A stretch of 64,000 nt of DNA from Candidatus Poribacteria bacterium (GCA_965222225.1 CBDCTK010000002.1:3296001-3360000); one strand, 5' to 3'. Shown: positions 33,422 to 54,156, counted from the first letter of the stretch. Notes: generated by a model from the letters alone, not told the origin. Numbers and translations: made by a program.

Positions 33422-33555
33422 AACGAAACCTCTTCACGTTTTCCCGTATCAACGGGATAACACCATAATCTAGAATGAATGCATTTGGGCGATTAAATCA
33501 TTTACAAACGTGCCTTTTATCCGTTCGTCATCATAATCACCGCACTACATTTAGT

Positions 33556-34599
33556 TAGGAGTTACGCAGTTGGCTGAAGCGTATAAAGAGGTTGTGCCAA
33601 ATAAGCCCGTACCGCATCTCTGACAATAGAGAGTTTTGCATCAAACCAACTGATACCGGTATGATAGCAATAGTGCTCAATTCTCAGAAAGGCTCTCAGC
33701 GCTAAACCGATATGATTTCTTTGAGTGCGAGCAGAGCGCACTTGTGCGCGTTCAATGCCAACAAATTGCTTAATCCCGCGATGATATTCTTCTATTGTCC
33801 AAGACCATTCGGCATATTTGAGACGCGTCAATTCGTCCATCTGTAAATCATTCGTTGCCCAATATTCAATGTCACCTTCTGGAGTGTCAACCTTAAATAC
33901 TCGAATCAATCCATAGCCTTTGAGATGGACAATTGTACCTGTTGATTCACTCGGAAGCGTACTCACCGGACGGTTACCGGAATAATCTTTACTGACAAGT
34001 CGGTTGGCAGCTAGACGAGTAAGCCACTTCCAACCATGACCTCGCACCGCTTTTAGATTCTTTAGACTGGCATACCAACTATCAAAACACACACATTCAG
34101 GAGCAAAACCGCGTGTTTTCGCTTCTTCAAGCATGGCGCGGAAATGCTCATTCTTCGTCAAGCCGTCTTTGGCTTTATCATAGATTCGATAATCACACGG
34201 AATATGTCTATCGCCATCCGTCCGGAGCAAAGTGACCAAGTTAATCCCATTCACAACTCGGTGGTGTTTCCCTGACCAGTGTTTTGTCACGAGTTCAATC
34301 TTTTGTGAATAAGGTTTATCCAGAGTCGAGTCATCTATAACTAAAATTCCGGATTCTAATTTCACCTGATTTCTCGATTCTTGCCACAGTTTGCCAGTAT
34401 CGGGTTCCTCTCGATGCAAGAGCCGTGTTATCGAATCGTGAGCCGGAGGATTATCAGCTTGGGGTTGAACTTTTTCCGATTCAAGACAACTGTAACTTTT
34501 CTGAGCGGCTACCAAGAAATCAATATAGTCAGTGTCAGTATATTTAGGGGGATTCATACTCAAATTATAACCTATTTTCACTCAACTGCGTAACTCCTA
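33556..34599 (-). mobile_element. IS701-family insertion sequence, copy 1 (1044 bp)
   Basis: Perfect 17-bp IRs TAGGAGTTACGCAGTTG / CAACTGCGTAACTCCTA, 5-bp target duplication TTAGT. Confidence 0.93.
33562..34581 (-). CDS. IS701-family DDE transposase
   Basis: VIDDSTLDKP, FDSWY, WTIEEYHRGIKQ. Confidence 0.9.
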   Translation of the reverse strand: MKIGYNLSMNPPKYTDTDYIDFLVAAQKSYSCLESEKVQPQADNPPAHDSITRLLHREEPDTGKLWQESRNQVKLESGILVIDDSTLDKPYSQKIELVTKHWSGKHHRVVNGINLVTLLRTDGDRHIPCDYRIYDKAKDGLTKNEHFRAMLEEAKTRGFAPECVCFDSWYASLKNLKAVRGHGWKWLTRLAANRLVSKDYSGNRPVSTLPSESTGTIVHLKGYGLIRVFKVDTPEGDIEYWATNDLQMDELTRLKYAEWSWTIEEYHRGIKQFVGIERAQVRSARTQRNHIGLALRAFLRIEHYCYHTGISWFDAKLSIVRDAVRAYLAQPLYTLQPTA

Positions 34600-35013
34600 T
34601 TAGTATTATAACATTGAGAAGTCCCTTGGGAAAAGCAAAACATTGCCCAGCCCCAACACAGCCACTCCCGATTTTGGAACTGTGGCGGTCTTCGATTACA
34701 AAATCGCCGATTCCCTTGAAACTAAGTTTTTTCTTGAAAACTCAGTTTCTTTGAACGTGCAGCATTCCGGTAGGAGCAATCGCAAAGCGCGATTCTCGTC
34801 GGCTTTTAGCTTTATTTTCTCTTTTGCCCAAATCAATTGAGGTAACAAACTCTCAGGGCAATCTTATCATTTAGGGGACGGCCCTGTGCCGTCCTATGAT
34901 TTTAGCACCCTCCCCTAGCTGTCCCGAAGGCTGGTGGGATTTCTATCGCAGTCATTATTCATTCCTTTGATCGCACCCTACAACGGCTTGATTGTGCCTT
35001 ACAACAACTGAAT

Positions 35014-40894: not shown

Positions 40895-43855
40895 CTACAG
40901 GTTCGGTGGGATGCGATAAGCGCGATAGAGGCGGCTCTTTAGGTCGTCCTTAACCTCCGGTTTTGATAGCTTGTTATACAGTTCCACCTTGTTATTGACA
41001 AAATCCAGCAGGATTGTGTCAAGCACTTGTCCAAATTTGTAGTGTCGGTTGCTCTCCGTATTGTCGCCCTCCATAACCTGCCGAAGGTCTTCATTCTCGT
41101 TCACCCTGCGGCGGATTGTGTCAATATCAACCTTGTCTTCCTCGGTGAAGTCTGTCTGATGGGCATTGTTCAACGCCTCAATGATACTGGAGAGCAAATC
41201 TACCTCCGGATCGGCGATGGTGCCCTCTCCACTCCCGATTCCGGGAACTTCGCTGTCCTCCGATTCAAGTTTGAGTTGCAAATCTTTATGGACTTGCTGA
41301 ACGCGAAACGAATCCAAGTCCACCGCTTCCAGCACATCGCTCACGTCGGGGTGCTCCCGTTTCGGCAGCTTTTTGTTGAGGCTGCGAGCAAAGACGTACA
41401 GTTTCTCCAGATCGGCGTCGGTGAAGGTAATCAACTGCGAGATATAGCCGTAGAGGCGGATGTAGCTTTGCAAGGCGGATCGGAACTCCTCTCGTTCCTC
41501 CTCGTCCCGGTCCGACCAGCGTTCGACAACCTCGTCCAAGATGGCCTGTATCAATTCGTCGGGTTGCTCCCCGTCATAAAAGACGAGGCAGAATCGGTTG
41601 ATGGTATCCTCGCTGTAGACGTTGAAATCCTCCAACTGGCGCTGCAGGTCGTACAACCGATTGGGGTCGGTCTCCTCCGCCAGCATCGTCGTCTGGTAAT
41701 ACTGCTGAAAGGCGGCTTGGATTCCGTCGGGTTCGTTCACGAAATCGAGCACCAGCGTATCCGTCTTGCCCTCGACGACGCGGTTCAAGCGGCTTAGGGC
41801 TTGGACGCATTGCAGCCCCTCCAGCCGTTTGTCAACGTACATGGTGTGGAGCATCGGCTCGTCGAAACCGGTCTGGAACTTGTTCGACACAATCAGAATC
41901 CGATACTTCGGACTCTTGAAGGTGTCGGGAATGGAGACGCCCGGCGGCAAACCGTTCATGCCGTTCTCGGTGTAGTCCTCTCCGTTGTCGGTGTCGTGCA
42001 CCGTGCCGCTGAAGGCGACCAGACAACCGTAAGGGAGATTCATCTCGCGCATCTGCTCCCCAAATTCCTGCTTGTAGCGGACGCAGTGAAGACGGGATCG
42101 CGTAATCAGCATCGCCCGTCCCTTACTCCCAATCGTCTTCGCCGTGTGTCGGATGAAGTGTTCAAGCATAATCTTCGTCTTCGTCTCAATGCTGTGCGGT
42201 TGTAGATCAACGTAGTTCGTCAAGGCGCGCAGCGTCCGCCCCGTCTCGTAGACTTTATCATCCTCCGCGTTCTTGACCAGTTGGAAGTACCGCTTGAAGG
42301 TGTTGTAGTTCTGCAAGACATCAAGCGTGAAGACTTCGCTGATGCTCTGTTTCATGGAATAGACGTGGAACGGGAGGAACTTTCCGTCTTCGCCCTTGCG
42401 TCCGAACAGTTCCAAGGTTTTGTTCTTGGGCGTACCGCTGAACCCGAAATAGGAGATGTGATCCTGCGCGCCCCGGAGTTCCATCTCCCGGATAATCCGC
42501 GCGTCCATATCGGATACTTCCGCGCCGTCATCATCGGCGCCCTCGTCCGCCTCTATCCCTCGCGACAGCGATGCCCTTAGGTTGCGCGCCGCCTCGCCGG
42601 TCTGGGAGGAGTGGACTTCGTCAATAATCACGGCGAAGGTTTTGCTTTTGAGTTCGCCGATGGTTTCGGCAATCACGCTGAATTTTTGTATCGTGGAGAT
42701 GATGATGTCCTTGCCGGTTTCCAGGAAGCCTCTGAGTTGCACGGAGGTCTTGTCAACGGAATGGACGACGCCTTCCACCTGCTCCGACTGCTTGATGGTC
42801 TCCTGGAGTTGTTTGTCGAGCACGCGCCGGTCGGTGACGACAATCACCGAGTCGAAGATGCGCTCCGTATCCGTCGGGGAGCGGTAGAGATGCGTCAGCA
42901 GGTGCGCCAGCCAAGCGATGGAGTTCGACTTGCCGCTGCCGGTGGCGTGTTGGATGAGGTAGTTGCGCCCGACGCCTTCCACAACGATAGCCGCTTTCAG
43001 TACCCGGATTACGTCAAGCTGGTGGTAGCGCGGAAAGACCAGTACCGACTCCTTTTTATCTTTCACCGCGCCCAAGCCGGCGTCGAAAACTTTTGTTGTG
43101 ACCTCCTGCTCATGGATGAAGTCCCCAATTAAGTGCAGCAGGTTATCGGGTTGCAGGATATCCTCCCAGAGGTAGGCGACCTTGTGACCGTCGTCGTTCA
43201 CCGGGTTTTCGATATCCCTGTTAAACGGAAAGAATCGGGTTTCGTTCCCCGCCAAGCGGGTCGTCATGGAGACCTTCTCGTTGCCCACGGCGAAGTGTAC
43301 CAGGCAGCGCTTGAATTTGAAGAGCGGCTCTCTGGGGTCTCGATCCTCCTTATACTGTTTCTCGGCGTCCGTCACCACCTGACCGGTGAGGCTGTTCTTG
43401 AGTTCCATTGTCACCAGCGGTAGACCGTTGAGGAACAATGCCATGTCCAGCGATTTTTCGTTTCGCTGCGAATACTTGAGTTGGCGGATCAGGGTGAATC
43501 GGTTCAGCGCGTGGAGGCGTTGATGGTCGGGGTTCATGCCGCTCGACGGACGGAAGTAGGTCAGGCTGAAGTTGCAGCCGCGGTCTTTCACGCCTTTGCG
43601 CAGCACATCAAGGACACCGCGGCGCTCAATCTGCATTGCGATTCGATTGAGGAGCCTATCCGGCGTCGCTGCCCCGTATTCGCGTTTAAGCCGCTCATAC
43701 TCCGTTGGTTGTGTATTTTGAATGAATTTCAGCAACTCCTCGGGAATCAGGCAGGCGTATTTGTCGTAGTCGGGGGATTGGAGTGAACGGTAGCCCGACC
43801 GGTTCAGGCGCTCTTCAATGTGGTCTTCGAAATTGGTTTCGGAGTACGTGCGCAT
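40895..43855 (-). CDS. hsdR: Type I restriction enzyme R subunit
   Basis: DMALFLNGLPLVTMELKN nuclease motif, QHATGSGKS, DEVH, FSGTPK, TGFDEP, QALSRLNR. Confidence 0.95.
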   Translation of the reverse strand: MRTYSETNFEDHIEERLNRSGYRSLQSPDYDKYACLIPEELLKFIQNTQPTEYERLKREYGAATPDRLLNRIAMQIERRGVLDVLRKGVKDRGCNFSLTYFRPSSGMNPDHQRLHALNRFTLIRQLKYSQRNEKSLDMALFLNGLPLVTMELKNSLTGQVVTDAEKQYKEDRDPREPLFKFKRCLVHFAVGNEKVSMTTRLAGNETRFFPFNRDIENPVNDDGHKVAYLWEDILQPDNLLHLIGDFIHEQEVTTKVFDAGLGAVKDKKESVLVFPRYHQLDVIRVLKAAIVVEGVGRNYLIQHATGSGKSNSIAWLAHLLTHLYRSPTDTERIFDSVIVVTDRRVLDKQLQETIKQSEQVEGVVHSVDKTSVQLRGFLETGKDIIISTIQKFSVIAETIGELKSKTFAVIIDEVHSSQTGEAARNLRASLSRGIEADEGADDDGAEVSDMDARIIREMELRGAQDHISYFGFSGTPKNKTLELFGRKGEDGKFLPFHVYSMKQSISEVFTLDVLQNYNTFKRYFQLVKNAEDDKVYETGRTLRALTNYVDLQPHSIETKTKIMLEHFIRHTAKTIGSKGRAMLITRSRLHCVRYKQEFGEQMREMNLPYGCLVAFSGTVHDTDNGEDYTENGMNGLPPGVSIPDTFKSPKYRILIVSNKFQTGFDEPMLHTMYVDKRLEGLQCVQALSRLNRVVEGKTDTLVLDFVNEPDGIQAAFQQYYQTTMLAEETDPNRLYDLQRQLEDFNVYSEDTINRFCLVFYDGEQPDELIQAILDEVVERWSDRDEEEREEFRSALQSYIRLYGYISQLITFTDADLEKLYVFARSLNKKLPKREHPDVSDVLEAVDLDSFRVQQVHKDLQLKLESEDSEVPGIGSGEGTIADPEVDLLSSIIEALNNAHQTDFTEEDKVDIDTIRRRVNENEDLRQVMEGDNTESNRHYKFGQVLDTILLDFVNNKVELYNKLSKPEVKDDLKSRLYRAYRIPPNL

Positions 43856-45242: not shown

Positions 45243-46097
45243 ATGGACATTTTGAATCTTATGAAAGAGTTTCCAAATCAAGAATCTTGTCTCAGATTTA
45301 TAGAGGAAAAACGTTGGAAGGACGGTGTTTGCTGTATCCACTGTGGCAGTGAAAAAGTTGGACGCAAGAACAAAAACGACATTACTACTGGTTGGAATTG
45401 CTACGATTGTGAATCTAGCTTTTCGGCTACAGCAGGAACCATCTTCCATGGTACCAAGATACCTCTCCAGAAATGGTTTTTGGCTATCTCAATTCTTTCC
45501 AATGCCAAGAAAAGCATATCGAGTTGTCAGCTTGCTCGTGACTTGGACATGAATCAAAAGTCCGCTTGGTATATGGCAATGCGCCTCCGTGAGAAAATGA
45601 GTGATAGTGATGAATTGCTGAAAGGGATAGTTGAAGCGGACGAAACCTATGTCGGCGGCAAACCCAGAGCAAAATCTAAGAGAGGTAGAGGCACAAATAA
45701 ATCTCCCGTCATCGGCGTAGTCGAGAGAGGCGGTCGGGTGGTTGCTAAATTCATGAAGGTTCTATCTGGTGAAAATATCAGAGAATTCATCCTTAGCAAT
45801 GTCTCACCCGATGAGTCTATTCTTATGACTGATGAATTTCGCTCTTACAATAGTCTGGACGAAGATATCGAAAGACATGTTATCCATCACCAAGAGAGAT
45901 ATGTTTCTGAGGACGGCGTAACTCACACCAACACCATCGAGTCGTTTTGGGCTTGTGTCAAGAGGTCATTCTACGGAACGCATCATCACTACAGCAAGAA
46001 GTGGCTGCCACTGTATATCATGGAGTCTTGCTGGAAATATAATCGCAGAAAAGATGATGAGATTTTCATAAGATTTTTTGATGAATGCTTCACCTGA
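45243..46097 (+). CDS. IS1595-family (ISXO2-like) transposase
   Basis: Zn ribbon CIHC...CYDC, GTIFH, EADETYVGG, TDE, TNTIESFW. Confidence 0.92.
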   Translation: MDILNLMKEFPNQESCLRFIEEKRWKDGVCCIHCGSEKVGRKNKNDITTGWNCYDCESSFSATAGTIFHGTKIPLQKWFLAISILSNAKKSISSCQLARDLDMNQKSAWYMAMRLREKMSDSDELLKGIVEADETYVGGKPRAKSKRGRGTNKSPVIGVVERGGRVVAKFMKVLSGENIREFILSNVSPDESILMTDEFRSYNSLDEDIERHVIHHQERYVSEDGVTHTNTIESFWACVKRSFYGTHHHYSKKWLPLYIMESCWKYNRRKDDEIFIRFFDECFT

Positions 46098-46533: not shown

Positions 46534-47727
46534 CTACACCTCGTCCCGGACATCTATCTTGCCCGTCACAACCTCGGAGATGAGGGATTGGCGGTATTCT
46601 TTGAGGAGTTTGATGCTTTGTTCTTCGGTGGAGCGGTGTTCGTCGATTTGGCGTGTCTTGTGGTCAAGGAAGGCAGCGATTTGAAATTGTTCAGAGAGTG
46701 TAGGATATGCGATCTGGATATCCCCAACTTCGGATTCGTTTATTGATGGAACGGTGCCACCTCCCCTGTAGTACCTCTCAAAATCAACGTTTATCATCGT
46801 ATAGTACAAAAGCTTATAGTTTAATTGGGTTGAATATACGGACATCATGTTGTTGTCAATACATGAGTCTTTGACAAGGATATTTCGCTTGTTCAATAGC
46901 AATGCGGCGCCAATTTTCGGAAACACGATGCTCTTTGGTTTATGGAGCGTAAACTTGAAAGCATGAACCTCGTGGGAGGATACGGTATTTTGGGCACACA
47001 ACATTTCGACCTTGTTCGTGGGTAAATTGGTATCAGACACTTTGAAAAAAGGTACTTCCAAACTTGTTCTGCCCTGTAAATCATGCGAGAATCCATTCCC
47101 CGATTTGAGAGAACAGAAATATTTCAATTTTTTGACTTGCCAATACTTGGGTATCTCCCCAATCCAGTCTACCCCTGACGGTTTCATCTCCACATTTGGG
47201 TCAAGCCCCTTCGTCACTGCCTGATGTATCAGGGAGGCACGGTATTCACCCAGGAGTTCTATCTTTCGTTCTTTGACGCGGATGAGGTCGTCGATTTGTC
47301 CCGTCTTGTGGTCAAGGAAGTTGGCGATTTGGCGTTGTGTGGGAATTGGAGGTATTGAGGTTGGTACTTGTCGAAGGACAATCTGTGTTAATAGAGGTTG
47401 TGCAGACCCGCCCGCATAACGATTTAAGTTTAGCCCTCCAAGCAAGTAGTAAATGTATTCTATGTCGAATGAAATATCCTTCGGTTGTCCTACAATTGTG
47501 TTGTCTGAAGCCCAGAAATGCGTCTTGCAGTATTTGATCGAACCGCAATATGCACCCACACGACCAATGATTAAGCCGTTTTGATGTGTATACTCACTAC
47601 TTTGCCCTATCAAGCCGTTCGAACCATAAACTGGATATACTCCATCACCTCCTGGCTTTATGGATTTACCATTGAAGAATCTTAGCACATTGCCGAGCAC
47701 GGTAGGTTTAAAATGACTAGACTGCAT
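46534..47727 (-). CDS. hsdS: Type I restriction-modification specificity subunit
   Basis: Two TRDs separated by conserved repeats (Q.QIA.FLDHKT.QID), SGVDWIGEIP, C-terminal SLISEVVTGKIDV. Confidence 0.93.
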   Translation of the reverse strand: MQSSHFKPTVLGNVLRFFNGKSIKPGGDGVYPVYGSNGLIGQSSEYTHQNGLIIGRVGAYCGSIKYCKTHFWASDNTIVGQPKDISFDIEYIYYLLGGLNLNRYAGGSAQPLLTQIVLRQVPTSIPPIPTQRQIANFLDHKTGQIDDLIRVKERKIELLGEYRASLIHQAVTKGLDPNVEMKPSGVDWIGEIPKYWQVKKLKYFCSLKSGNGFSHDLQGRTSLEVPFFKVSDTNLPTNKVEMLCAQNTVSSHEVHAFKFTLHKPKSIVFPKIGAALLLNKRNILVKDSCIDNNMMSVYSTQLNYKLLYYTMINVDFERYYRGGGTVPSINESEVGDIQIAYPTLSEQFQIAAFLDHKTRQIDEHRSTEEQSIKLLKEYRQSLISEVVTGKIDVRDEV

Positions 47728-47943: not shown

Positions 47944-48450
47944 TCAAGCGTGTCTACGTAATTGCCGAATGTCATCCTCGCAAATAAATTCAATTGTTAC
48001 GCCATTTCGACAAAATGCGTCGCGGAGTTGCCACCACTGTTTATCCATGGCTTGGAGGATGGGCGGCTTTTCGGCATGGGCACGGGCAACTGCGATAAAT
48101 TTCCGGTCGTCGGGATCGAATTTTTGCAATTCTGGGTCGTCAGGGAATTCTATGAACTCAGTTTGTGAATTTTCAATAGGCGTAATCGGAACCAATTCGC
48201 ACTGCTCCGTGTTTGTCCGATTTCGTAGGCTCCACACGAAAAACCTATCACCGGCGCCCGGTTTTCCACTTTCACTGAGATTTCTTGAATACTCGCCGAG
48301 AATTATCCAATCCGCGTCAAGAATCAATTTCATCTCGCCCTGCATAATCCGTTCTAGCCAGTTAATGCAGGATTCTTCACACTCCTTAAAGTCTTTTCCC
48401 CATTCGCCGTTGGCGAGCCTTGCTACGTTTGTATCTACAATTACCATCAT
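47944..48450 (-). CDS. PIN-like domain protein (putative ribonuclease effector)
   Basis: N-terminal VIVDTNV, I..EY, DPDDRKFIAVA, ILQAMD acidic residues; 4-bp overlap with the upstream ATPase. Confidence 0.7.
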   Translation of the reverse strand: MMVIVDTNVARLANGEWGKDFKECEESCINWLERIMQGEMKLILDADWIILGEYSRNLSESGKPGAGDRFFVWSLRNRTNTEQCELVPITPIENSQTEFIEFPDDPELQKFDPDDRKFIAVARAHAEKPPILQAMDKQWWQLRDAFCRNGVTIEFICEDDIRQLRRHA

Positions 48451-49721
48451 AATGTGTTTGCTTTCCGACGCTTAATTTCAGCTTTGGCTCTTTCTACAAC
48501 ATCACCTGCGTCATCGCCAAAGAAGTCCCGGGGCCAATTGCTAACGTTGCCGTATTCATCCATCTTCAGTGGTTCAATTTGGGATGTGCCATCGTTGATT
48601 TGGCAGGAATAGAGTGCCATGGCATCCGCCGAAATCTCTCCCTCGGCGATGCGGCGCGTCAAGCGGTGAAGCAGGTGCTCGCTGTGGCTCTCAAGGATAA
48701 TCTGGATATTCCGGTTTTTTACGACATCAATGAGGACATCCGCTAATTCGGATTGTACCTTCGGATGGAGGTGCGCTTCGGGTTGTTCGAGAATAAGGAT
48801 TGATCCTTCGCGAGCGTAGTAGCAGTCAACCAGCACCGGAAAGACTTGGGAGACGCCGAAGCCCACGTCCGTGAGCCGCACCTCGGGACCGCCCTTGTGC
48901 TTCGTGACGCGGACATCGTAACTGCCTTTTTTATTAAGATTGGGTTGGATTCGATAAGAGTCAATCAGATCCAAGCGTTGGAGCCATTCAAGTATCTGCT
49001 TCTCAATGGAGAGGAGTTGTATTCTGCCTGAAAGCAGGGCGGGAATTGCCTTTTCTCCACGCTGTCCGATGTTTTCTGGATGATCGCCCTTCCACGTGTA
49101 CCAGTGCCGTGGGGGTTCGCGCAGTGGGCCTAGGTAGTGGATTCTCTTGAATAGGTTTTCAAATGCGTCTTGGCGAGTCAAAAAAGCTTCCAAATATTTG
49201 TCCGGTCCACCACGCTGTTCAACAACTCCATAGCATCGAAACGCCTCTTTCTGTTTAGTTGAAAAATGTCTTCCGGCTGCATAATCGGGGAACGTGAACG
49301 TGTATCCCGCCCCATCTCTTACTAAATCCCATCTGGAACCGTAGCCCTCGTAACGAAAAGTATGTAAATTAGGATGCTCGGATGTTTTCTCAATGGACAT
49401 CGAAAAGGTTAAGTTTTGTCCAATCTTCATTTCTTCAGGTAGCTCACACGACACGGAAATGCGGAGGCTCAAATTCGCGTTATGTTGGTGGATGACATTA
49501 TCAAAACTGACCAAATTGACAAGCGATTCCTCAGTGCCGAAGTAGAGTGGCTCATTCCACTCCGGTGGACGCTCCACAGTCTGCTTGAGCATGAGCAGTA
49601 CCTGCAGGATACCTGTCTTGCCGGAGCTATTGGCGCCGAAGAATCCGGTCAATGGAGCGAAATCTAATTTGCCTGTGTCTTCCCATGATTTGAAATTCTC
49701 CGCTCTGAACTCGGTTATCAT
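48447..49721 (-). CDS. ABC-type ATPase (AAA_21/AAA_15) with DUF3696-like C-terminus, paralog 2
   Basis: ENFKSW, Walker A GANSSGKT, HYLGPLR, DVGFGVSQ signature, ILEQPEAHLHP, ESHSEH, WP..FF. Confidence 0.88.
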   Translation of the reverse strand: MITEFRAENFKSWEDTGKLDFAPLTGFFGANSSGKTGILQVLLMLKQTVERPPEWNEPLYFGTEESLVNLVSFDNVIHQHNANLSLRISVSCELPEEMKIGQNLTFSMSIEKTSEHPNLHTFRYEGYGSRWDLVRDGAGYTFTFPDYAAGRHFSTKQKEAFRCYGVVEQRGGPDKYLEAFLTRQDAFENLFKRIHYLGPLREPPRHWYTWKGDHPENIGQRGEKAIPALLSGRIQLLSIEKQILEWLQRLDLIDSYRIQPNLNKKGSYDVRVTKHKGGPEVRLTDVGFGVSQVFPVLVDCYYAREGSILILEQPEAHLHPKVQSELADVLIDVVKNRNIQIILESHSEHLLHRLTRRIAEGEISADAMALYSCQINDGTSQIEPLKMDEYGNVSNWPRDFFGDDAGDVVERAKAEIKRRKANTL

Positions 49722-49743
49722 GGCTCTTGTCTCCTTCTCGTAG

Positions 49744-49770
49744 AACGTTAGTATCGACAATCACCGTCAT
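49744..49770 (-). pseudogene. Remnant of a PIN gene start (MTVIVDTNV) between the two ATPases
   Basis: Matches MMVIVDTNV of 47944-48450 and begins 3 nt after the stop of paralog 1. Confidence 0.7.
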
Positions 49771-49772
49771 TA

Positions 49773-51035
49773 CTAGCTTATTCCCCGTCGATCCATTTCC
49801 GCTCTGCCTTGTCTTATCAAGTCGCCGGTGACATCGCCGAAGAACTCCTGGGGCCAATTGCTGATGTTGCCGTATTCATCAACTTGTAGCGGTTCAATTT
49901 CGGATACCCCGTCGTTAATTTGACAGAAATAGAGCGCCGTGTCATCCACGCACAGTTGTTCCTCGGCGGTGCGGAGCATTAAGCGGTGAAGCAGGTGCTC
50001 GCTGTGGCTTTCAAGGATAATCTGCAGATTTTGACTCTTCACGGCATGAATGAGAACATCACCCAGTTCGGATTGCACTTTCGGATGGAGGTGTGCCTCG
50101 GGCTGTTCGAGAATGAGGATTGAGCCTTCGGGTGCGTAATAACAGAGAATCAACACCGGCAGCACTTGGGAGACGCCGAAACCCACGTCGGTTAGTTGGA
50201 TTTCGGGACCGCCCTTGTACTTTCTGATGAGAAATTCGTAATCCTTTTCTGTACCAGAAACGGGAACAAGGCGATAGGAGTCTATCAAACCCAATTCTTG
50301 TAACCACTTCACTATTTGTTTGTCAACTGAGAGAAGTCGAACTCGCCCTGAAAGCATTGCAGGAACCATCTTTTCTCCATGCCGTCCAACCCCTTCTGGA
50401 TGGTCGCCATTCCACGTATACTGATGTCGAGGATATTCGCGCAGCGGACCTAGGTAGTGAATTCGGGCGAAAAGGTTTTCAAAAGCTTCTTCAAGGCCAG
50501 AGAAAAACCGTTGAGTAAAATCAGCAGGTGGAGAGTTGGATGACAAATCCCGAATGCCGTAGCATCGAAATAAAGATTCGATGCGTCCTTTTCCTATGGG
50601 AGTAACGGCATTGTGGTCCGGGCCTTCAGGCAAAATCTCAAAGCAATGCTCACCAACTTGGTAAGAGAACCTGCCTACACTCTTGTTATGGAAATTAAAG
50701 TAAAAATTAAGGACGTCAAGTTCATATGTATTCATAAGCATCTTCTTTTCGGGCACGCGCCACGATACAGAGATGCCAAGACTTATACCATTTCCGGACC
50801 GGTGAATAACATCATCAAAGCTACCCAAGTTGGCCAACGAATGCTCATCACCAAAGTAGAGTGGTTCATTCCAGTCCGGTGGACGCTCCACGGTCTGTTT
50901 GAGCATCAGCAACACCTGCAAGATACTGGTTTTGCCGGAGCTATTCGCACCGAAAAATCCGGTTATTGGGGCGAAACGCAATTTGCCTGTGTCTTCCCAC
51001 GATTTGAAGTTCTGTGCCCTGAGTTTCGTTATCAT
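49773..51035 (-). CDS. ABC-type ATPase (AAA_21/AAA_15) with DUF3696-like C-terminus, paralog 1
   Basis: Same motifs as paralog 2; AAGGAGG RBS upstream. Confidence 0.88.
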   Translation of the reverse strand: MITKLRAQNFKSWEDTGKLRFAPITGFFGANSSGKTSILQVLLMLKQTVERPPDWNEPLYFGDEHSLANLGSFDDVIHRSGNGISLGISVSWRVPEKKMLMNTYELDVLNFYFNFHNKSVGRFSYQVGEHCFEILPEGPDHNAVTPIGKGRIESLFRCYGIRDLSSNSPPADFTQRFFSGLEEAFENLFARIHYLGPLREYPRHQYTWNGDHPEGVGRHGEKMVPAMLSGRVRLLSVDKQIVKWLQELGLIDSYRLVPVSGTEKDYEFLIRKYKGGPEIQLTDVGFGVSQVLPVLILCYYAPEGSILILEQPEAHLHPKVQSELGDVLIHAVKSQNLQIILESHSEHLLHRLMLRTAEEQLCVDDTALYFCQINDGVSEIEPLQVDEYGNISNWPQEFFGDVTGDLIRQGRAEMDRRGIS

Positions 51036-51065
51036 AGCCTATACCTCCTTTCCGTCCGTCTAAAT

Positions 51066-52109
51066 TAGGAGTTACGCAGTTGGCTGAAGCGTATAAAGAG
51101 GTTGTGCCAAATAAGCCCGTACCGCATCTCTGACAATAGAGAGTTTTGCATCAAACCAACTGATACCGGTATGATAGCAATAGTGCTCAATTCTCAGAAA
51201 GGCTCTCAGCGCTAAACCGATATGATTTCTTTGAGTGCGAGCAGAGCGCACTTGTGCGCGTTCAATGCCAACAAATTGCTTAATCCCGCGATGATATTCT
51301 TCTATTGTCCAAGACCATTCGGCATATTTGAGACGCGTCAATTCGTCCATCTGTAAATCATTCGTTGCCCAATATTCAATGTCACCTTCTGGAGTGTCAA
51401 CCTTAAATACTCGAATCAATCCATAGCCTTTGAGATGGACAATTGTACCTGTTGATTCACTCGGAAGCGTACTCACCGGACGGTTACCGGAATAATCTTT
51501 ACTGACAAGTCGGTTGGCAGCTAGACGAGTAAGCCACTTCCAACCATGACCTCGCACCGCTTTTAGATTCTTTAGACTGGCATACCAACTATCAAAACAC
51601 ACACATTCAGGAGCAAAACCGCGTGTTTTCGCTTCTTCAAGCATGGCGCGGAAATGCTCATTCTTCGTCAAGCCGTCTTTGGCTTTATCATAGATTCGAT
51701 AATCACACGGAATATGTCTATCGCCATCCGTCCAGAGCAAAGTGACCAAGTTAATCCCATTCACAACTCGGTGGTGTTTCCCTGACCAGTGTTTTGTCAC
51801 GAGTTCAATCTTTTGTGAATAAGGTTTATCCAGAGTCGAGTCATCTATAACTAAAATTCCGGATTCTAATTTCACCTGATTTCTCGATTCTTGCCACAGT
51901 TTGCCAGTATCGGGTTCCTCTCGATGCAAGAGCCGTGTTATCGAATCGTGAGCCGGAGGATTATCAGCTTGGGGTTGAACTTTTTCCGATTCAAGACAAC
52001 TGTAACTTTTCTGAGCGGCTACCAAGAAATCAATATAGTCAGTGTCAGTATATTTAGGGGGATTCATACTCAAATTATAACCTATTTTCACTCAACTGCG
52101 TAACTCCTA
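51066..52109 (-). mobile_element. IS701-family insertion sequence, copy 2 (1044 bp)
   Basis: Same 17-bp IRs, own 5-bp target duplication TAAAT. Confidence 0.93.
51072..52091 (-). CDS. IS701-family DDE transposase
   Basis: Identical to copy 1 except LLWTDG versus LLRTDG. Confidence 0.9.
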   Translation of the reverse strand: MKIGYNLSMNPPKYTDTDYIDFLVAAQKSYSCLESEKVQPQADNPPAHDSITRLLHREEPDTGKLWQESRNQVKLESGILVIDDSTLDKPYSQKIELVTKHWSGKHHRVVNGINLVTLLWTDGDRHIPCDYRIYDKAKDGLTKNEHFRAMLEEAKTRGFAPECVCFDSWYASLKNLKAVRGHGWKWLTRLAANRLVSKDYSGNRPVSTLPSESTGTIVHLKGYGLIRVFKVDTPEGDIEYWATNDLQMDELTRLKYAEWSWTIEEYHRGIKQFVGIERAQVRSARTQRNHIGLALRAFLRIEHYCYHTGISWFDAKLSIVRDAVRAYLAQPLYTLQPTA

Positions 52110-52398
52110 TAAATTATACCATTTTTCTAAAATTCAAGTACATTGATTACGTGGAACAAGTAACGAAACTTGCAAGGAGCGGAATAAGAAGCATTGTGTC
52201 CGCACAAAAGCGGCGGGGCAAGGGGTCTCTATTGATCAACCGACCAAATAGGGAAGGCAATAGGTAAATTTACTCGTTATTCACTCGTTTGTGCCCGCTG
52301 GCGCTCTCAAAGGCTGGTAAGAGTTCTATCGCACTCCCTAGGCAGTCGCTTGATCGCAGTGCGCACCCTACAACTACACTAAATTATACCTTCTGTGG

Positions 52399-54156
52399 CT
52401 ACCCGTCTGAAACTAATTCTAACACGTCCCTCAGCAAGCCCTCGTTTTGACCCTCAAGCGCCCGCATCTCATCGGCGATCTCTTGGGGTGACCGCAGCGG
52501 CGTGTGACGATAGAAATAGCGATTGAAGTTGATTTCGTAGCCCACCTTGTCCTTCTTCCGATCCATCCAACCGTCCGGCAGGTGGGGTTTAATCTCTCGC
52601 CGGAAGTAGTCGCCGATGTCCTCCGCGAAGGGGATGCGCTCGTCCTCTCGCAGCGCGGTGTCCGGTTTCGGAACCCCCTTCTTGTCCTTTACGACCAACT
52701 CGTTTTGCTCGCCGGGGGCATCGCGCTTTTCGACCAGCGGTCTTTCGATAATCACCTTGGTGTAGCCGAAGAACTCGTTCGGATAGATCTTGGAGTGCTC
52801 GCATTCCTCGAAGTTCGTGTAGATGTGCACCAGCCGCTCAATGTGCAACTCGGAGATGAAAACGCTTTTGTTGCCGAGATTTCGTTTCATCGACTCGAAG
52901 AAACCGGCGCCGTTTATTAGTTGGATCTTGCCCCGCCGCCGATCCAGTTTGCGGTTCGTCAGGATCCAGATGTAGGTGGAGATGCTGGTGTTGAAGAAGA
53001 GTTTGTCGGGCAACGCGATGATGCACTCCAGCCAGTCGTTTTCGATAATCCAGCGTCGGATGTTACTCTCGCCGCTGCCGGCGTCGCCGGTGAACATCGG
53101 CGAGCCGTTCAGGACGATTCCTACACGGCTGCCGCGACTCTCCATCTTGGAGAGCATGTGCTGCAGGAATAGCAGCGCTCCGTCGGAACTGCGGGGCGTG
53201 CCGGCTGTGAACCTGCCGCCGGTAGTGCCCGCCTCCGCTTTCACGGCGGATTCATCGGACTTCCAACTGACGCCGAACGGTGGATTGGTTATCATGTAGT
53301 CGAAGCGTTTCCCTTGAAACTGGTCGTCGGAGAGGCAGGAGCCGAGTTGGACCGCGTCGGGGTTTTCGCCGGTTATCAGCATGTCCGATTTGCAGATGGC
53401 GTAGGTCTGCGGGTTGAGTTCCTGTCCTAACAGCCGGATATCGGCGTCCGGATTGATCTGCTCGCGAAAGTATTCCTTGCCAATCGTCAACATGCCGCCG
53501 GTGCCGCAGCAGGGATCGAAGATGCTGCGGATAACCCCCTGTCCGCGCGCCTCCTCGCTGTGTTCGGCGAATAGCAGGGAGACCAATAGCCGCACGACAT
53601 CCCGCGGCGTGTAGTGTTCCCCACTGGTCTCATTAGACATTTCCGAGAATCGGCGCAGCAACTCCTCAAACACCTGTCCCATGGTGTGGTTGTCCACCTG
53701 ATTCGGGTGCAGATCGACCTCCGTGAACTTGTCGCAGAAGATGAACAGTCGATTGTTCCTGTCCAGTCGGTCGATAAACTGATCGAGGTTGAAGTTTTCG
53801 ATGATGTCCCGGACATCCTTGCTGAAGCCGTTGAGGTAGTTGTTGAAGTTGAGACGGATGTTGTTGGGGTCGGCTTTCAGCCGGGAGAGGTCGTATCGGG
53901 AGGTGTTGTAGAAACTGGAATCCGTCTCTTTCAGAATTATCTGCGGCAGGGATTCTTCGGGGACGACATCTTTGAAGCGGCTGTAGGTTTCAATGGATTT
54001 GTCTTTTCGGTCGTCTTCCGTCAAGATGCAGTCCAATCGGCGCAGCACGAGAAAGGGGAGGGTGATGTCGCCGTATTCGTGGGGTTTGAATAAGCCTCGG
54101 AGGACATCGTCGGCTACGTTCCAAACGAGGTTTGAGAGTTCTTGGTAGTTTGCCAT
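52399..54156 (-). CDS. hsdM: Type I restriction-modification methyltransferase subunit
   Basis: GEHYTPRDVV, FDPCCGTGGM (motif I), TNPPFG (motif IV), GYEINFNRYFY. Confidence 0.95.
   Translation of the reverse strand: MANYQELSNLVWNVADDVLRGLFKPHEYGDITLPFLVLRRLDCILTEDDRKDKSIETYSRFKDVVPEESLPQIILKETDSSFYNTSRYDLSRLKADPNNIRLNFNNYLNGFSKDVRDIIENFNLDQFIDRLDRNNRLFIFCDKFTEVDLHPNQVDNHTMGQVFEELLRRFSEMSNETSGEHYTPRDVVRLLVSLLFAEHSEEARGQGVIRSIFDPCCGTGGMLTIGKEYFREQINPDADIRLLGQELNPQTYAICKSDMLITGENPDAVQLGSCLSDDQFQGKRFDYMITNPPFGVSWKSDESAVKAEAGTTGGRFTAGTPRSSDGALLFLQHMLSKMESRGSRVGIVLNGSPMFTGDAGSGESNIRRWIIENDWLECIIALPDKLFFNTSISTYIWILTNRKLDRRRGKIQLINGAGFFESMKRNLGNKSVFISELHIERLVHIYTNFEECEHSKIYPNEFFGYTKVIIERPLVEKRDAPGEQNELVVKDKKGVPKPDTALREDERIPFAEDIGDYFRREIKPHLPDGWMDRKKDKVGYEINFNRYFYRHTPLRSPQEIADEMRALEGQNEGLLRDVLELVSDG

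Follow-up and report, generated by a model that had tools for sequence, protein, structure and literature searches.

Gene content of the locus

A group of three genes is described here from a 64,000-nt stretch of DNA, hereafter the window, of a Candidatus Poribacteria bacterium (GCA_965222225.1, CBDCTK010000002.1:3296001-3360000); all coordinates are counted from its first letter. In the order of transcription on the minus strand, the locus consists of hsdM, an insertion sequence (IS) element of the IS701 family, the genes of two ATPases of the ATP-binding cassette (ABC) type (ATPase 1 and ATPase 2), the gene of a small PIN-domain protein, hsdS, and hsdR. A preliminary description of this DNA had recognised a co-oriented ATPase-ATPase-PIN module between hsdM and hsdS of a Type I restriction-modification (RM) operon and had placed it at 47944-51035, which is exact. 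The module contains the following features.

49773-51035, minus strand: ATPase 1 (distal, 'D-type'), 420 amino acids (aa); Pfam AAA_15 7e-26, AAA_21 and DUF3696 6e-12; PADLOC HEC-03B 7.9e-107
49744-49770, minus strand: nine-codon stub of a PIN gene, seen in the sequence of the spacer between the ATPases
48447-49721, minus strand: ATPase 2 (proximal), 424 aa from the ATG at 49721; Pfam AAA_15 8e-27, AAA_21 and DUF3696 8e-7; PADLOC HEC-03B 6.2e-105
47944-48450, minus strand: PIN-domain protein, 168 aa, putative ribonuclease (RNase) effector; PADLOC HEC-03A 1.6e-29 and predicted fold

Judged by these profile matches, the module is a member of the HEC-03 anti-phage family, in a three-gene, lineage-specific form. 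For both ATPases, HEC-03B (PDLC04148) ranks first, among 124 and 115 matched PADLOC families, and the next-best matches are NsnB of Menshen (1.6e-62 and 1.1e-64) and PDC-M55A. The DUF3696-like character attributed to the ATPases at the outset is confirmed by Pfam, while the suggestion that the system might be undescribed does not hold, since HEC-03 models match the PIN protein and both ATPases. What is new is the architecture: a duplication of the sensor ATPase only, with a scar, within a known family.

In the available part of the preprint that introduces it, HEC-03 (Hma-embedded candidate 03) is a pair of an ABC ATPase and a PIN protein embedded in Hma systems (Payne, Hughes, Fineran, Jackson, bioRxiv 10.1101/2024.01.29.577857). 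HEC-03 alone lowers plaquing in Escherichia coli MG1655 delta-RM, both genes are required, and the system is toxic when induced with isopropyl β-D-thiogalactopyranoside (IPTG). The same text states infection sensing by the ATPases as an open question, and describes embedded genes as frequent in Type I RM, BREX and DISARM (10.1101/2024.01.29.577857). In the naming of the preprint 'A' is the ATPase and 'B' the PIN protein, an order that the PADLOC model names reverse.

The PIN protein

The 168-aa protein has no match in Pfam or NCBIfam, and a search of Protein Data Bank sequences with its profile found no relative by sequence (best E 0.46, SecA). Its match to HEC-03A (PDLC04147) aligns residues 1-159 with profile positions 1-153 of 159. 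An AlphaFold2 model, built on 36 homologues, has a mean predicted local distance difference test score (pLDDT) of 93.6. Foldseek gives no match to this model at E<=0.001; its best is 7.6e-3 (VapBC2), in a list made up almost wholly of PIN proteins. VIA-align places the model closest to VapC15, VapC21 and VapC11 (Z 9.7, 9.7 and 9.6; root-mean-square deviation about 3 Å over 122-124 residues), and nearly all of the 31 chains with Z>=8 are VapC or other PIN proteins, at sequence identities to VapCs of 10-19%. The PIN assignment follows from the consistency of the hit list together with the VIA Z scores.

Residues D6, D45, E53, D115 and D136 are invariant in the alignment of 36 homologues, and D6, E53, D115 and D136 cover the D-E-D-D set of PIN nucleases. 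From model and alignment, the protein looks like a VapC-type PIN of the active type, and the PIN-like nuclease named in the preliminary description is thus borne out by the HEC-03A profile, the VapC fold and these residues. The protein is a stand-alone domain and carries no C-terminal effector domain. No VapB-like antitoxin gene lies upstream of it, the upstream gene being that of the 424-aa ABC ATPase. In the same alignment, C24, C28 and C157 are invariant and C84 occurs in at least 90% of the homologues; these four cysteines may form a metal or disulfide site, which would be atypical of VapC.

The two ATPases

ATPase 1 and ATPase 2 share 59% identity (251/428). As listed, the open reading frame of ATPase 2 spans 48447-49760 from a TTG at 49760. 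Its true start is likely the ATG at 49721, given that the alignment with ATPase 1 begins at M14 and that GAAGGAG stands about 8 nt before this ATG. An ATGA sequence holds both the stop of ATPase 2 and the first codon of the PIN gene, and by this overlap the two genes are taken to be translationally coupled.

The motifs of ATPase 1 are the Walker A sequence GANSSGKT, EQPEAHLHP, GFGVSQ and SHS. Across the 22 ATPases checked, Walker A and SHS are present in 22/22 and EQPEAHLHP in 20/22. An AlphaFold2 model of ATPase 1 (pLDDT 85.2) ends in a DUF3696 helix, and in Foldseek the whole model matches the heads of Rad50, SMC and PtuA at about 4e-12. With complete nucleotide-binding motifs, both ATPases look competent.

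The distal ATPases of multi-ATPase loci (n=7) form one clade in a quick IQ-TREE run, with a Shimodaira-Hasegawa-like approximate likelihood ratio test (SH-aLRT) support of 98. Walker A, EQPEAHLHP, GFGVSQ and SHS are kept in all of them, no frameshifts or stops were seen in these genes, and they are intact in 7 genomes of two families. The ratio of nonsynonymous (dN) to synonymous (dS) change in their core is 0.11-0.24 in 21/21 pairs (Nei-Gojobori). These ratios indicate that the distal ATPases are under purifying selection and that both copies are maintained.

A stub of the PIN gene between the ATPases

Between the ATPase 1 stop (49773) and the ATPase 2 ATG (49721) lies a 49-nt spacer. It opens with an ATG and the codons M-T-V-I-V-D-T-N-V (49770-49744), which is the conserved N-terminus of the PIN family, and then passes directly into the GAAGGAG ribosome-binding site of ATPase 2. 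Comparable stubs stand at the junctions of all six other multi-ATPase loci (MTVIVDTNT, MTVMVDTYV, LTVIFDTTV, MTVIFDTTV, MTVIVDTNV and MTLIGDANV), with progressive decay across the multi-ATPase loci, and the three-ATPase locus L036 has a more eroded copy at its third junction. The sole two-ATPase locus found in metagenomes (L175) has no clear PIN stub at its junction.

When 126 nt of junction DNA were used as a query, full-length matches were found in 6/176 phylum genomes, the source genome included, and a partial match in a seventh; six of these seven genomes belong to the genus of the source and the remaining one to a different family. Searched by itself, the 30-nt stub additionally hits two more genomes, G056 and G044, at the 5′ ends of genuine PIN genes. 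The simplest account of these sequences is that the ATPase was copied without the PIN gene by one old tandem duplication, which would have spanned from upstream of the ATPase ribosome-binding site to about PIN codon 9. Nine codons of a PIN gene would stand between the ATPases because the duplication ended there.

The variable centre of the ATPases

The ATPases were compared in 30-column windows, with residues 10-64, 183-211 and 285-344 taken as core blocks. Between ATPase 1 and ATPase 2, the core blocks reach 80-92% identity, against 3-23% for residues 92-182. The same residues are the least conserved within each orthologous clade as well (25-62% per comparison window), and dN in this insert region is three- to seven-fold above core dN. 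In the model of ATPase 1 the insert follows the P-loop helix and consists of six successive beta-strands (E85-E152), after which the next core helix begins; this beta-rich centre is Insert-1 as defined in the available text of Payne et al. (bioRxiv 10.1101/2024.01.29.577857).

The C-terminal thirds behave differently from the centres. Over this third, ATPase 1 shares 90% identity with the distal clade, and ATPase 2 shares 85% with the proximal clade. Between the two positions, C-terminal thirds differ by about 30% overall, with about 33% identity over the final 16 residues. For the centres neither clade offers a match: the highest identity is 51% for that of ATPase 1, reached with an ATPase from a different array, and 37% for that of ATPase 2. 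On these comparisons, the Insert-1 centres look mosaic and swapped between genomes, and the C-terminal thirds look position-specific. Placement of ATPase 2 in a 'solo-type' clade, from a whole-length tree, was considered and rejected, its C-terminal third being of the proximal type; the whole-length tree grouped it with single-ATPase loci because its centre is swapped.

Relatives in the phylum and beyond

The HEC-03 PIN profile has at least 222 matches in the phylum, in 125/176 genomes and at up to 5 places per genome, and matches in 0/14 control genomes. By this count the phylum is unusually rich in HEC-03, a high load for one defence family. Sixty phylum contexts, drawn from the best-scoring matches on long contigs, were annotated by phmmer with the proteins of the window as queries, by which foreign hsd genes may be under-detected. 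An ATPase lies directly upstream of the PIN gene in 60/60 of these loci. Among the 58 that are classifiable, 53 have one ATPase, four have two and one has three. Outside the 58 stand an RM-associated array with the order ATPase-hsdM-ATPase-PIN-ATPase-ATPase-PIN (L034) and a tandem pair without hsd genes (L070); tandem (ATPase-PIN)xN arrays occur at L066, L069, L070, L084 (three pairs) and L088.

In metagenomes, where the best 80 of 313 loci were surveyed, an adjacent ATPase is present in 70/72 loci. Among those with at least 3 kb of upstream sequence, 25/26 have one ATPase and one (L175) has two.

Two observations on relatives lie apart from the module. At G000:C2:3434788-3435348, about 75 kb past the end of the window, a further HEC-03B-like ATPase, the third, gives a weaker match (E 2.3e-21; open frame of 436 aa). 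On plasmids (12 records matched), an RNA ligase family gene follows the ATPase-PIN pair in 5/6 contexts opened, in Aeromonas (two), Tistrella, Azotobacter and Rhodococcus; the genes lie at 7535-8236 in L101, 7495-8187 in L102, 7531-8223 in L103, 5582-6181 in L105 and 5535-6236 in L106. By tblastn, no homologue of the ligase was found in the window or in 61 phylum loci, and the ligase is for that reason not considered part of the present variant.

Flanking genes and mobile elements

The genes and elements around the module are as follows.

52399-54156, minus strand: hsdM, Type I RM methyltransferase, 585 aa; Pfam N6_Mtase 3.5e-60 and HsdM_N 1.6e-21; PADLOC MTase_I 1e-236
52114-52373, no strand assigned: short dispersed repeats, intergenic; BLAST against the own genome
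~51066-52110, minus strand: IS701-family element, 1045 bp, with its transposase reading frame at 51072-52091; NCBIfam transpos_IS701_2 1.2e-119
46534-47727, minus strand: hsdS, Type I RM specificity subunit, 397 aa; Pfam Methylase_S 2.6e-27; PADLOC Specificity_I 1.5e-77
45243-46097, plus strand: IS1595-family transposase between hsdS and hsdR; Pfam DDE_Tnp_IS1595 1.2e-36 and Zn_ribbon_IS1595
40895-43855, minus strand: hsdR, Type I RM restriction subunit, 986 aa; Pfam HSDR_N, SWI2_SNF2, ResIII and T1R_D3-like; PADLOC REase_I 1.9e-44

The IS701-family element lies between hsdM and ATPase 1 and ends 30 nt before the start of the latter. At least 23 further copies are present in the genome at 99-100% identity, one of them inside the window at ~33555-34615, and this copy number and identity point to a recent burst. 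The hsdM-proximal repeats consist of units of about 100-120 bp with 76-94% identity and more than 20 partial matches in the same genome by BLAST, and are similar to miniature inverted-repeat transposable elements or repetitive extragenic palindromic sequences. Between 43800 and 54500, neither promoter-like sites (18 against 16.0 +/- 4.5 expected) nor terminator-like sites (15 against 11.1 +/- 3.7 expected) are above chance.

Association with Type I RM and a slot for cargo

An arrangement like that of the window, with hsdM upstream and hsdS/hsdR downstream, is found in 19/58 classifiable phylum loci. Some hsd gene is nearby in 25/58 and none in 33/58, and in 34/60 contexts the surrounding ~9 kb are free of hsd genes; all multi-ATPase loci of the phylum are RM-associated. 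In the metagenomes an hsd gene adjoins the pair in 2/80 loci, and in 0/11 of those with at least 5 kb on both sides. The embedded loci all carry orthologues of a single Type I system (HsdM 1000-1270 bits), and for this reason they count as few events and not as independent associations.

In relatives, the gap between the PIN gene and hsdS holds a changing set of genes. A long prokaryotic Argonaute (pAgo) with a Schlafen/AlbA_2 N-terminus is found there in L051 and L052, a short pAgo with an Aga-REase partner in L041 and L046, PD-Lambda-4-like proteins of the STAND (signal transduction ATPases with numerous domains) type in L044 and L049, and a HEPN AbiU2-like protein in L048. A protein of 805-837 aa, encoded immediately after the PIN gene, occupies the gap in three loci of close relatives (L038, 6527-8944; L039, 9533-12046; L040, 9550-12039). 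Neither Pfam nor PADLOC has a match for it, and its only counterparts in the ESM Atlas are clusters near 810 aa labelled 'hypothetical protein' (score 0.96-0.97); its gene is a candidate for an embedded defence function. In the window the slot is empty (216 bp). Judged by its contents in relatives, the gap resembles a slot for cargo, as meant by 'guilt by embedding', and the Type I RM operon is probably a carrier and co-regulated neighbour of the module and not a required partner.

Proposed mechanism and alternative explanations

The locus is probably best read as a HEC-03 member that is housed in a Type I RM operon and in which a single PIN RNase effector is shared by two sensor ATPases. If PARIS, Septu and the predicted NsnB-NsnC complex of Menshen are taken as models, oligomers of the ATPases would hold the PIN protein inactive through their C-terminal DUF3696 regions. 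Recognition of a phage-derived trigger by Insert-1 would then change the ATP-dependent state of the ATPase, and the PIN protein, released or activated, would cut RNA (tRNA, rRNA or mRNA), with arrest of translation and abortion of the infection. Two ATPases with different centres could in this way widen the set of triggers for a single effector. They may form separate homo-oligomers or a heteromer, as the position-specific C-termini fit either arrangement.

A more far-reaching form of this scheme is offered tentatively, as a possibility and not as the expected outcome. The two paralogous ATPases, three in one genome, would form a sensor array converging on one PIN protein, with Insert-1 exchanged like cassettes and the effector-facing C-termini fixed by position. 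Since the array would be co-transcribed with the Type I RM genes, one of its centres may recognise anti-restriction proteins.

Several points weigh against the favoured reading of two sensors and one effector. An IS701-family element sits 30 nt ahead of ATPase 1 and may interfere with transcription driven by the hsdM promoter. Contigs from RNA libraries (four runs) match only the multi-copy IS at 51065-52110 and parts of hsdM, at 95-99% likeness and with loose ends at 51065/6 and 52109, and are neutral on transcription of the ATPase and PIN genes. In the insert region dN/dS stays below 1 (0.22-0.49 in pairs with unsaturated dS), and dS is saturated in many pairs; what the alignments support for the insert is faster change and mosaicism, and not positive selection. 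The trees are quick IQ-TREE runs with SH-aLRT support only, in which the PIN proteins of multi-ATPase loci group together at 91 only, a node that is not starred. Finally, the 60 phylum contexts are not a random sample.

Other arrangements of the same three genes have to be considered. The distal and proximal ATPases could form an obligate, subfunctionalised heterodimer that clamps the PIN protein asymmetrically, each tail serving one face, so that neither ATPase would work alone. Conservation of the C-terminal thirds by position (90% and 85%), with differences between positions, speaks for this, as do the grouping of the PIN proteins of multi-ATPase loci (SH-aLRT 91) and, in the accessible text of PMC12065111, the asymmetric binding of one effector between two ATPase tails in related systems. 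It is nonetheless doubtful, because three ATPases in one genome fit additive sensors better than a fixed pair and because the dimer-interface motifs are complete and very similar in both paralogues. Conversely, ATPase 2 and the PIN protein might be the only working pair, and ATPase 1 a leftover of the duplication that is idle or acts independently of the PIN protein. The stub shows ATPase 1 without an effector of its own, it decays freely between genomes, and a single ATPase suffices in 25/26 metagenome and 53/58 phylum loci. Retention of intact distal ATPases in 7 genomes of two families, with core dN/dS of 0.11-0.24 in 21/21 pairs, all catalytic motifs and no frameshifts or stops, makes a mere passenger unlikely.

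The position of the module between hsdM and hsdS, on the same strand, had first suggested a guard of the RM system like PrrC. In such a scheme the module would be silenced by the Type I RM complex, or watch it, and fire on an anti-restriction protein (Ocr, ArdA or Stp-like), or else it would sense that protein directly, as PARIS senses Ocr. In its favour are the 19/58 phylum loci that are likewise embedded, the RM association of all multi-ATPase loci, weak matches of the ATPases to the AriA model (3.9e-29), and the back-up roles for embedded systems that are raised in the available text of 10.1101/2024.01.29.577857. However, HEC-03 alone protected E. coli delta-RM in that same text (10.1101/2024.01.29.577857), no hsd gene stands within some 9 kb in 34/60 phylum contexts, and hsd neighbours are found in 0/11 long metagenomic contexts and 2/80 overall. 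The embedded loci, moreover, reflect few events around one orthologous RM system, and the unrelated cargo of the same slot (pAgo, PD-Lambda-4-like and AbiU2-like proteins) is more readily explained by a cargo hotspot than by a dedicated partnership. A PrrC-like guard role thus finds no support from the delta-RM host or from the relatives without hsd genes, and is considered quite improbable. Least probable is an addiction module, with the PIN protein as a VapC-like toxin, the ATPase as its antitoxin, and stabilisation of the RM island or of a replicon as the outcome. The VapC-type fold, the toxicity on induction in E. coli reported in the available text of 10.1101/2024.01.29.577857, and the presence of homologues on conjugative plasmids beside Hok/Gef and AbiE genes are compatible with it; the anti-phage activity of HEC-03 was, however, measured directly (10.1101/2024.01.29.577857), and a VapB-like antitoxin is absent from the locus.

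Implications

The HEC-03 module is in itself ordinary, as its name, profiles and plaque assays already exist. The interest lies in the scar, a natural experiment that would show duplication of a sensor ATPase without the effector, followed by maintenance of the copy under selection. Change is concentrated in one beta-rich mosaic insert, and this points to the part of HEC-03 and Menshen-type ATPases that most likely reads the phage signal. Natural chimeras with the same C-terminus and different centres are suited to the question of trigger specificity that the accessible text of 10.1101/2024.01.29.577857 leaves open. At the level of the phylum, the Type I RM operon appears to act as a slot for changing defence cargo. 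If the sensor array is true, one toxic effector would be armed by several interchangeable phage detectors, in miniature likeness to the sensor/helper receptor sets of eukaryotic innate immunity.

Comparison with known systems

The module resembles HEC-03 as described in having an ABC ATPase and an adjacent VapC-like PIN protein, coupled on one strand and embedded in a DNA-modification defence operon. It differs in that two ATPase paralogues (three in one relative) and a stub accompany the single PIN gene, whereas the described system has two genes, and in that the host operon is Type I RM and not Hma.

Menshen (NsnA-NsnB-NsnC), which reportedly goes back to Millman et al. in 2022, shares with the present locus NsnB-like ATPases with a DUF3696 tail and a PIN-fold partner directly downstream. 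The kinship without a DUF262 partner that the preliminary description had pointed out is upheld by the NsnB matches (1.6e-62/1.1e-64) and by PF03235 matches that all lie outside the window: the NsnA DUF262 gene is absent from it, and the nearest of 6 PF03235 matches in the genome is about 420 kb away. In the available part of a study of Menshen, NsnB is an ABC ATPase with a DUF3696 helix, and AlphaFold3 models show the two DUF3696 tails of an NsnB dimer clamping the N-terminal PIN-like domain of NsnC (PMC12065111). According to the same text, that PIN-like domain has no catalytic residues and a separate C-terminal domain is the toxin (PMC12065111). By contrast, the PIN protein of the window keeps D-E-D-D and consists of the PIN domain only, whereas in NsnC an inactive PIN-like domain is fused to a toxin.

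PrrC of EcoprrI also links an ABC-type ATPase to an RNase and is nested in a Type I RM locus, and its dependence on the RM enzyme is established in the accessible text of PMC2610378. PrrC is, however, a single polypeptide with a C-terminal anticodon nuclease, while here the PIN gene is separate and a DUF3696 helix closes each ATPase. The 25 top-ranking PADLOC matches, out of totals of 124 and 115 families for the two ATPases, do not include a PrrC model. VapBC toxin-antitoxin systems have the closest PIN fold (Z 8-9.7 to VapC toxins), but no VapB is present here and the partner is an ABC ATPase of about 420 aa. In PARIS and Septu, as in the module, an oligomer of ABC ATPases controls a small nuclease, and the ATPases of the window have weak matches to AriA (3.9e-29) and PtuA. 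Their effectors are Toprim (AriB, DUF4435) or HNH (PtuB) proteins and not PIN proteins, and their ATPases have no DUF3696 tail. Structures of Septu and PARIS by cryogenic electron microscopy show an ATPase dimer bound to one nuclease (cited in the available text of PMC12065111), and by analogy the two systems are the likely working model for the ATPase-ATPase-PIN module.

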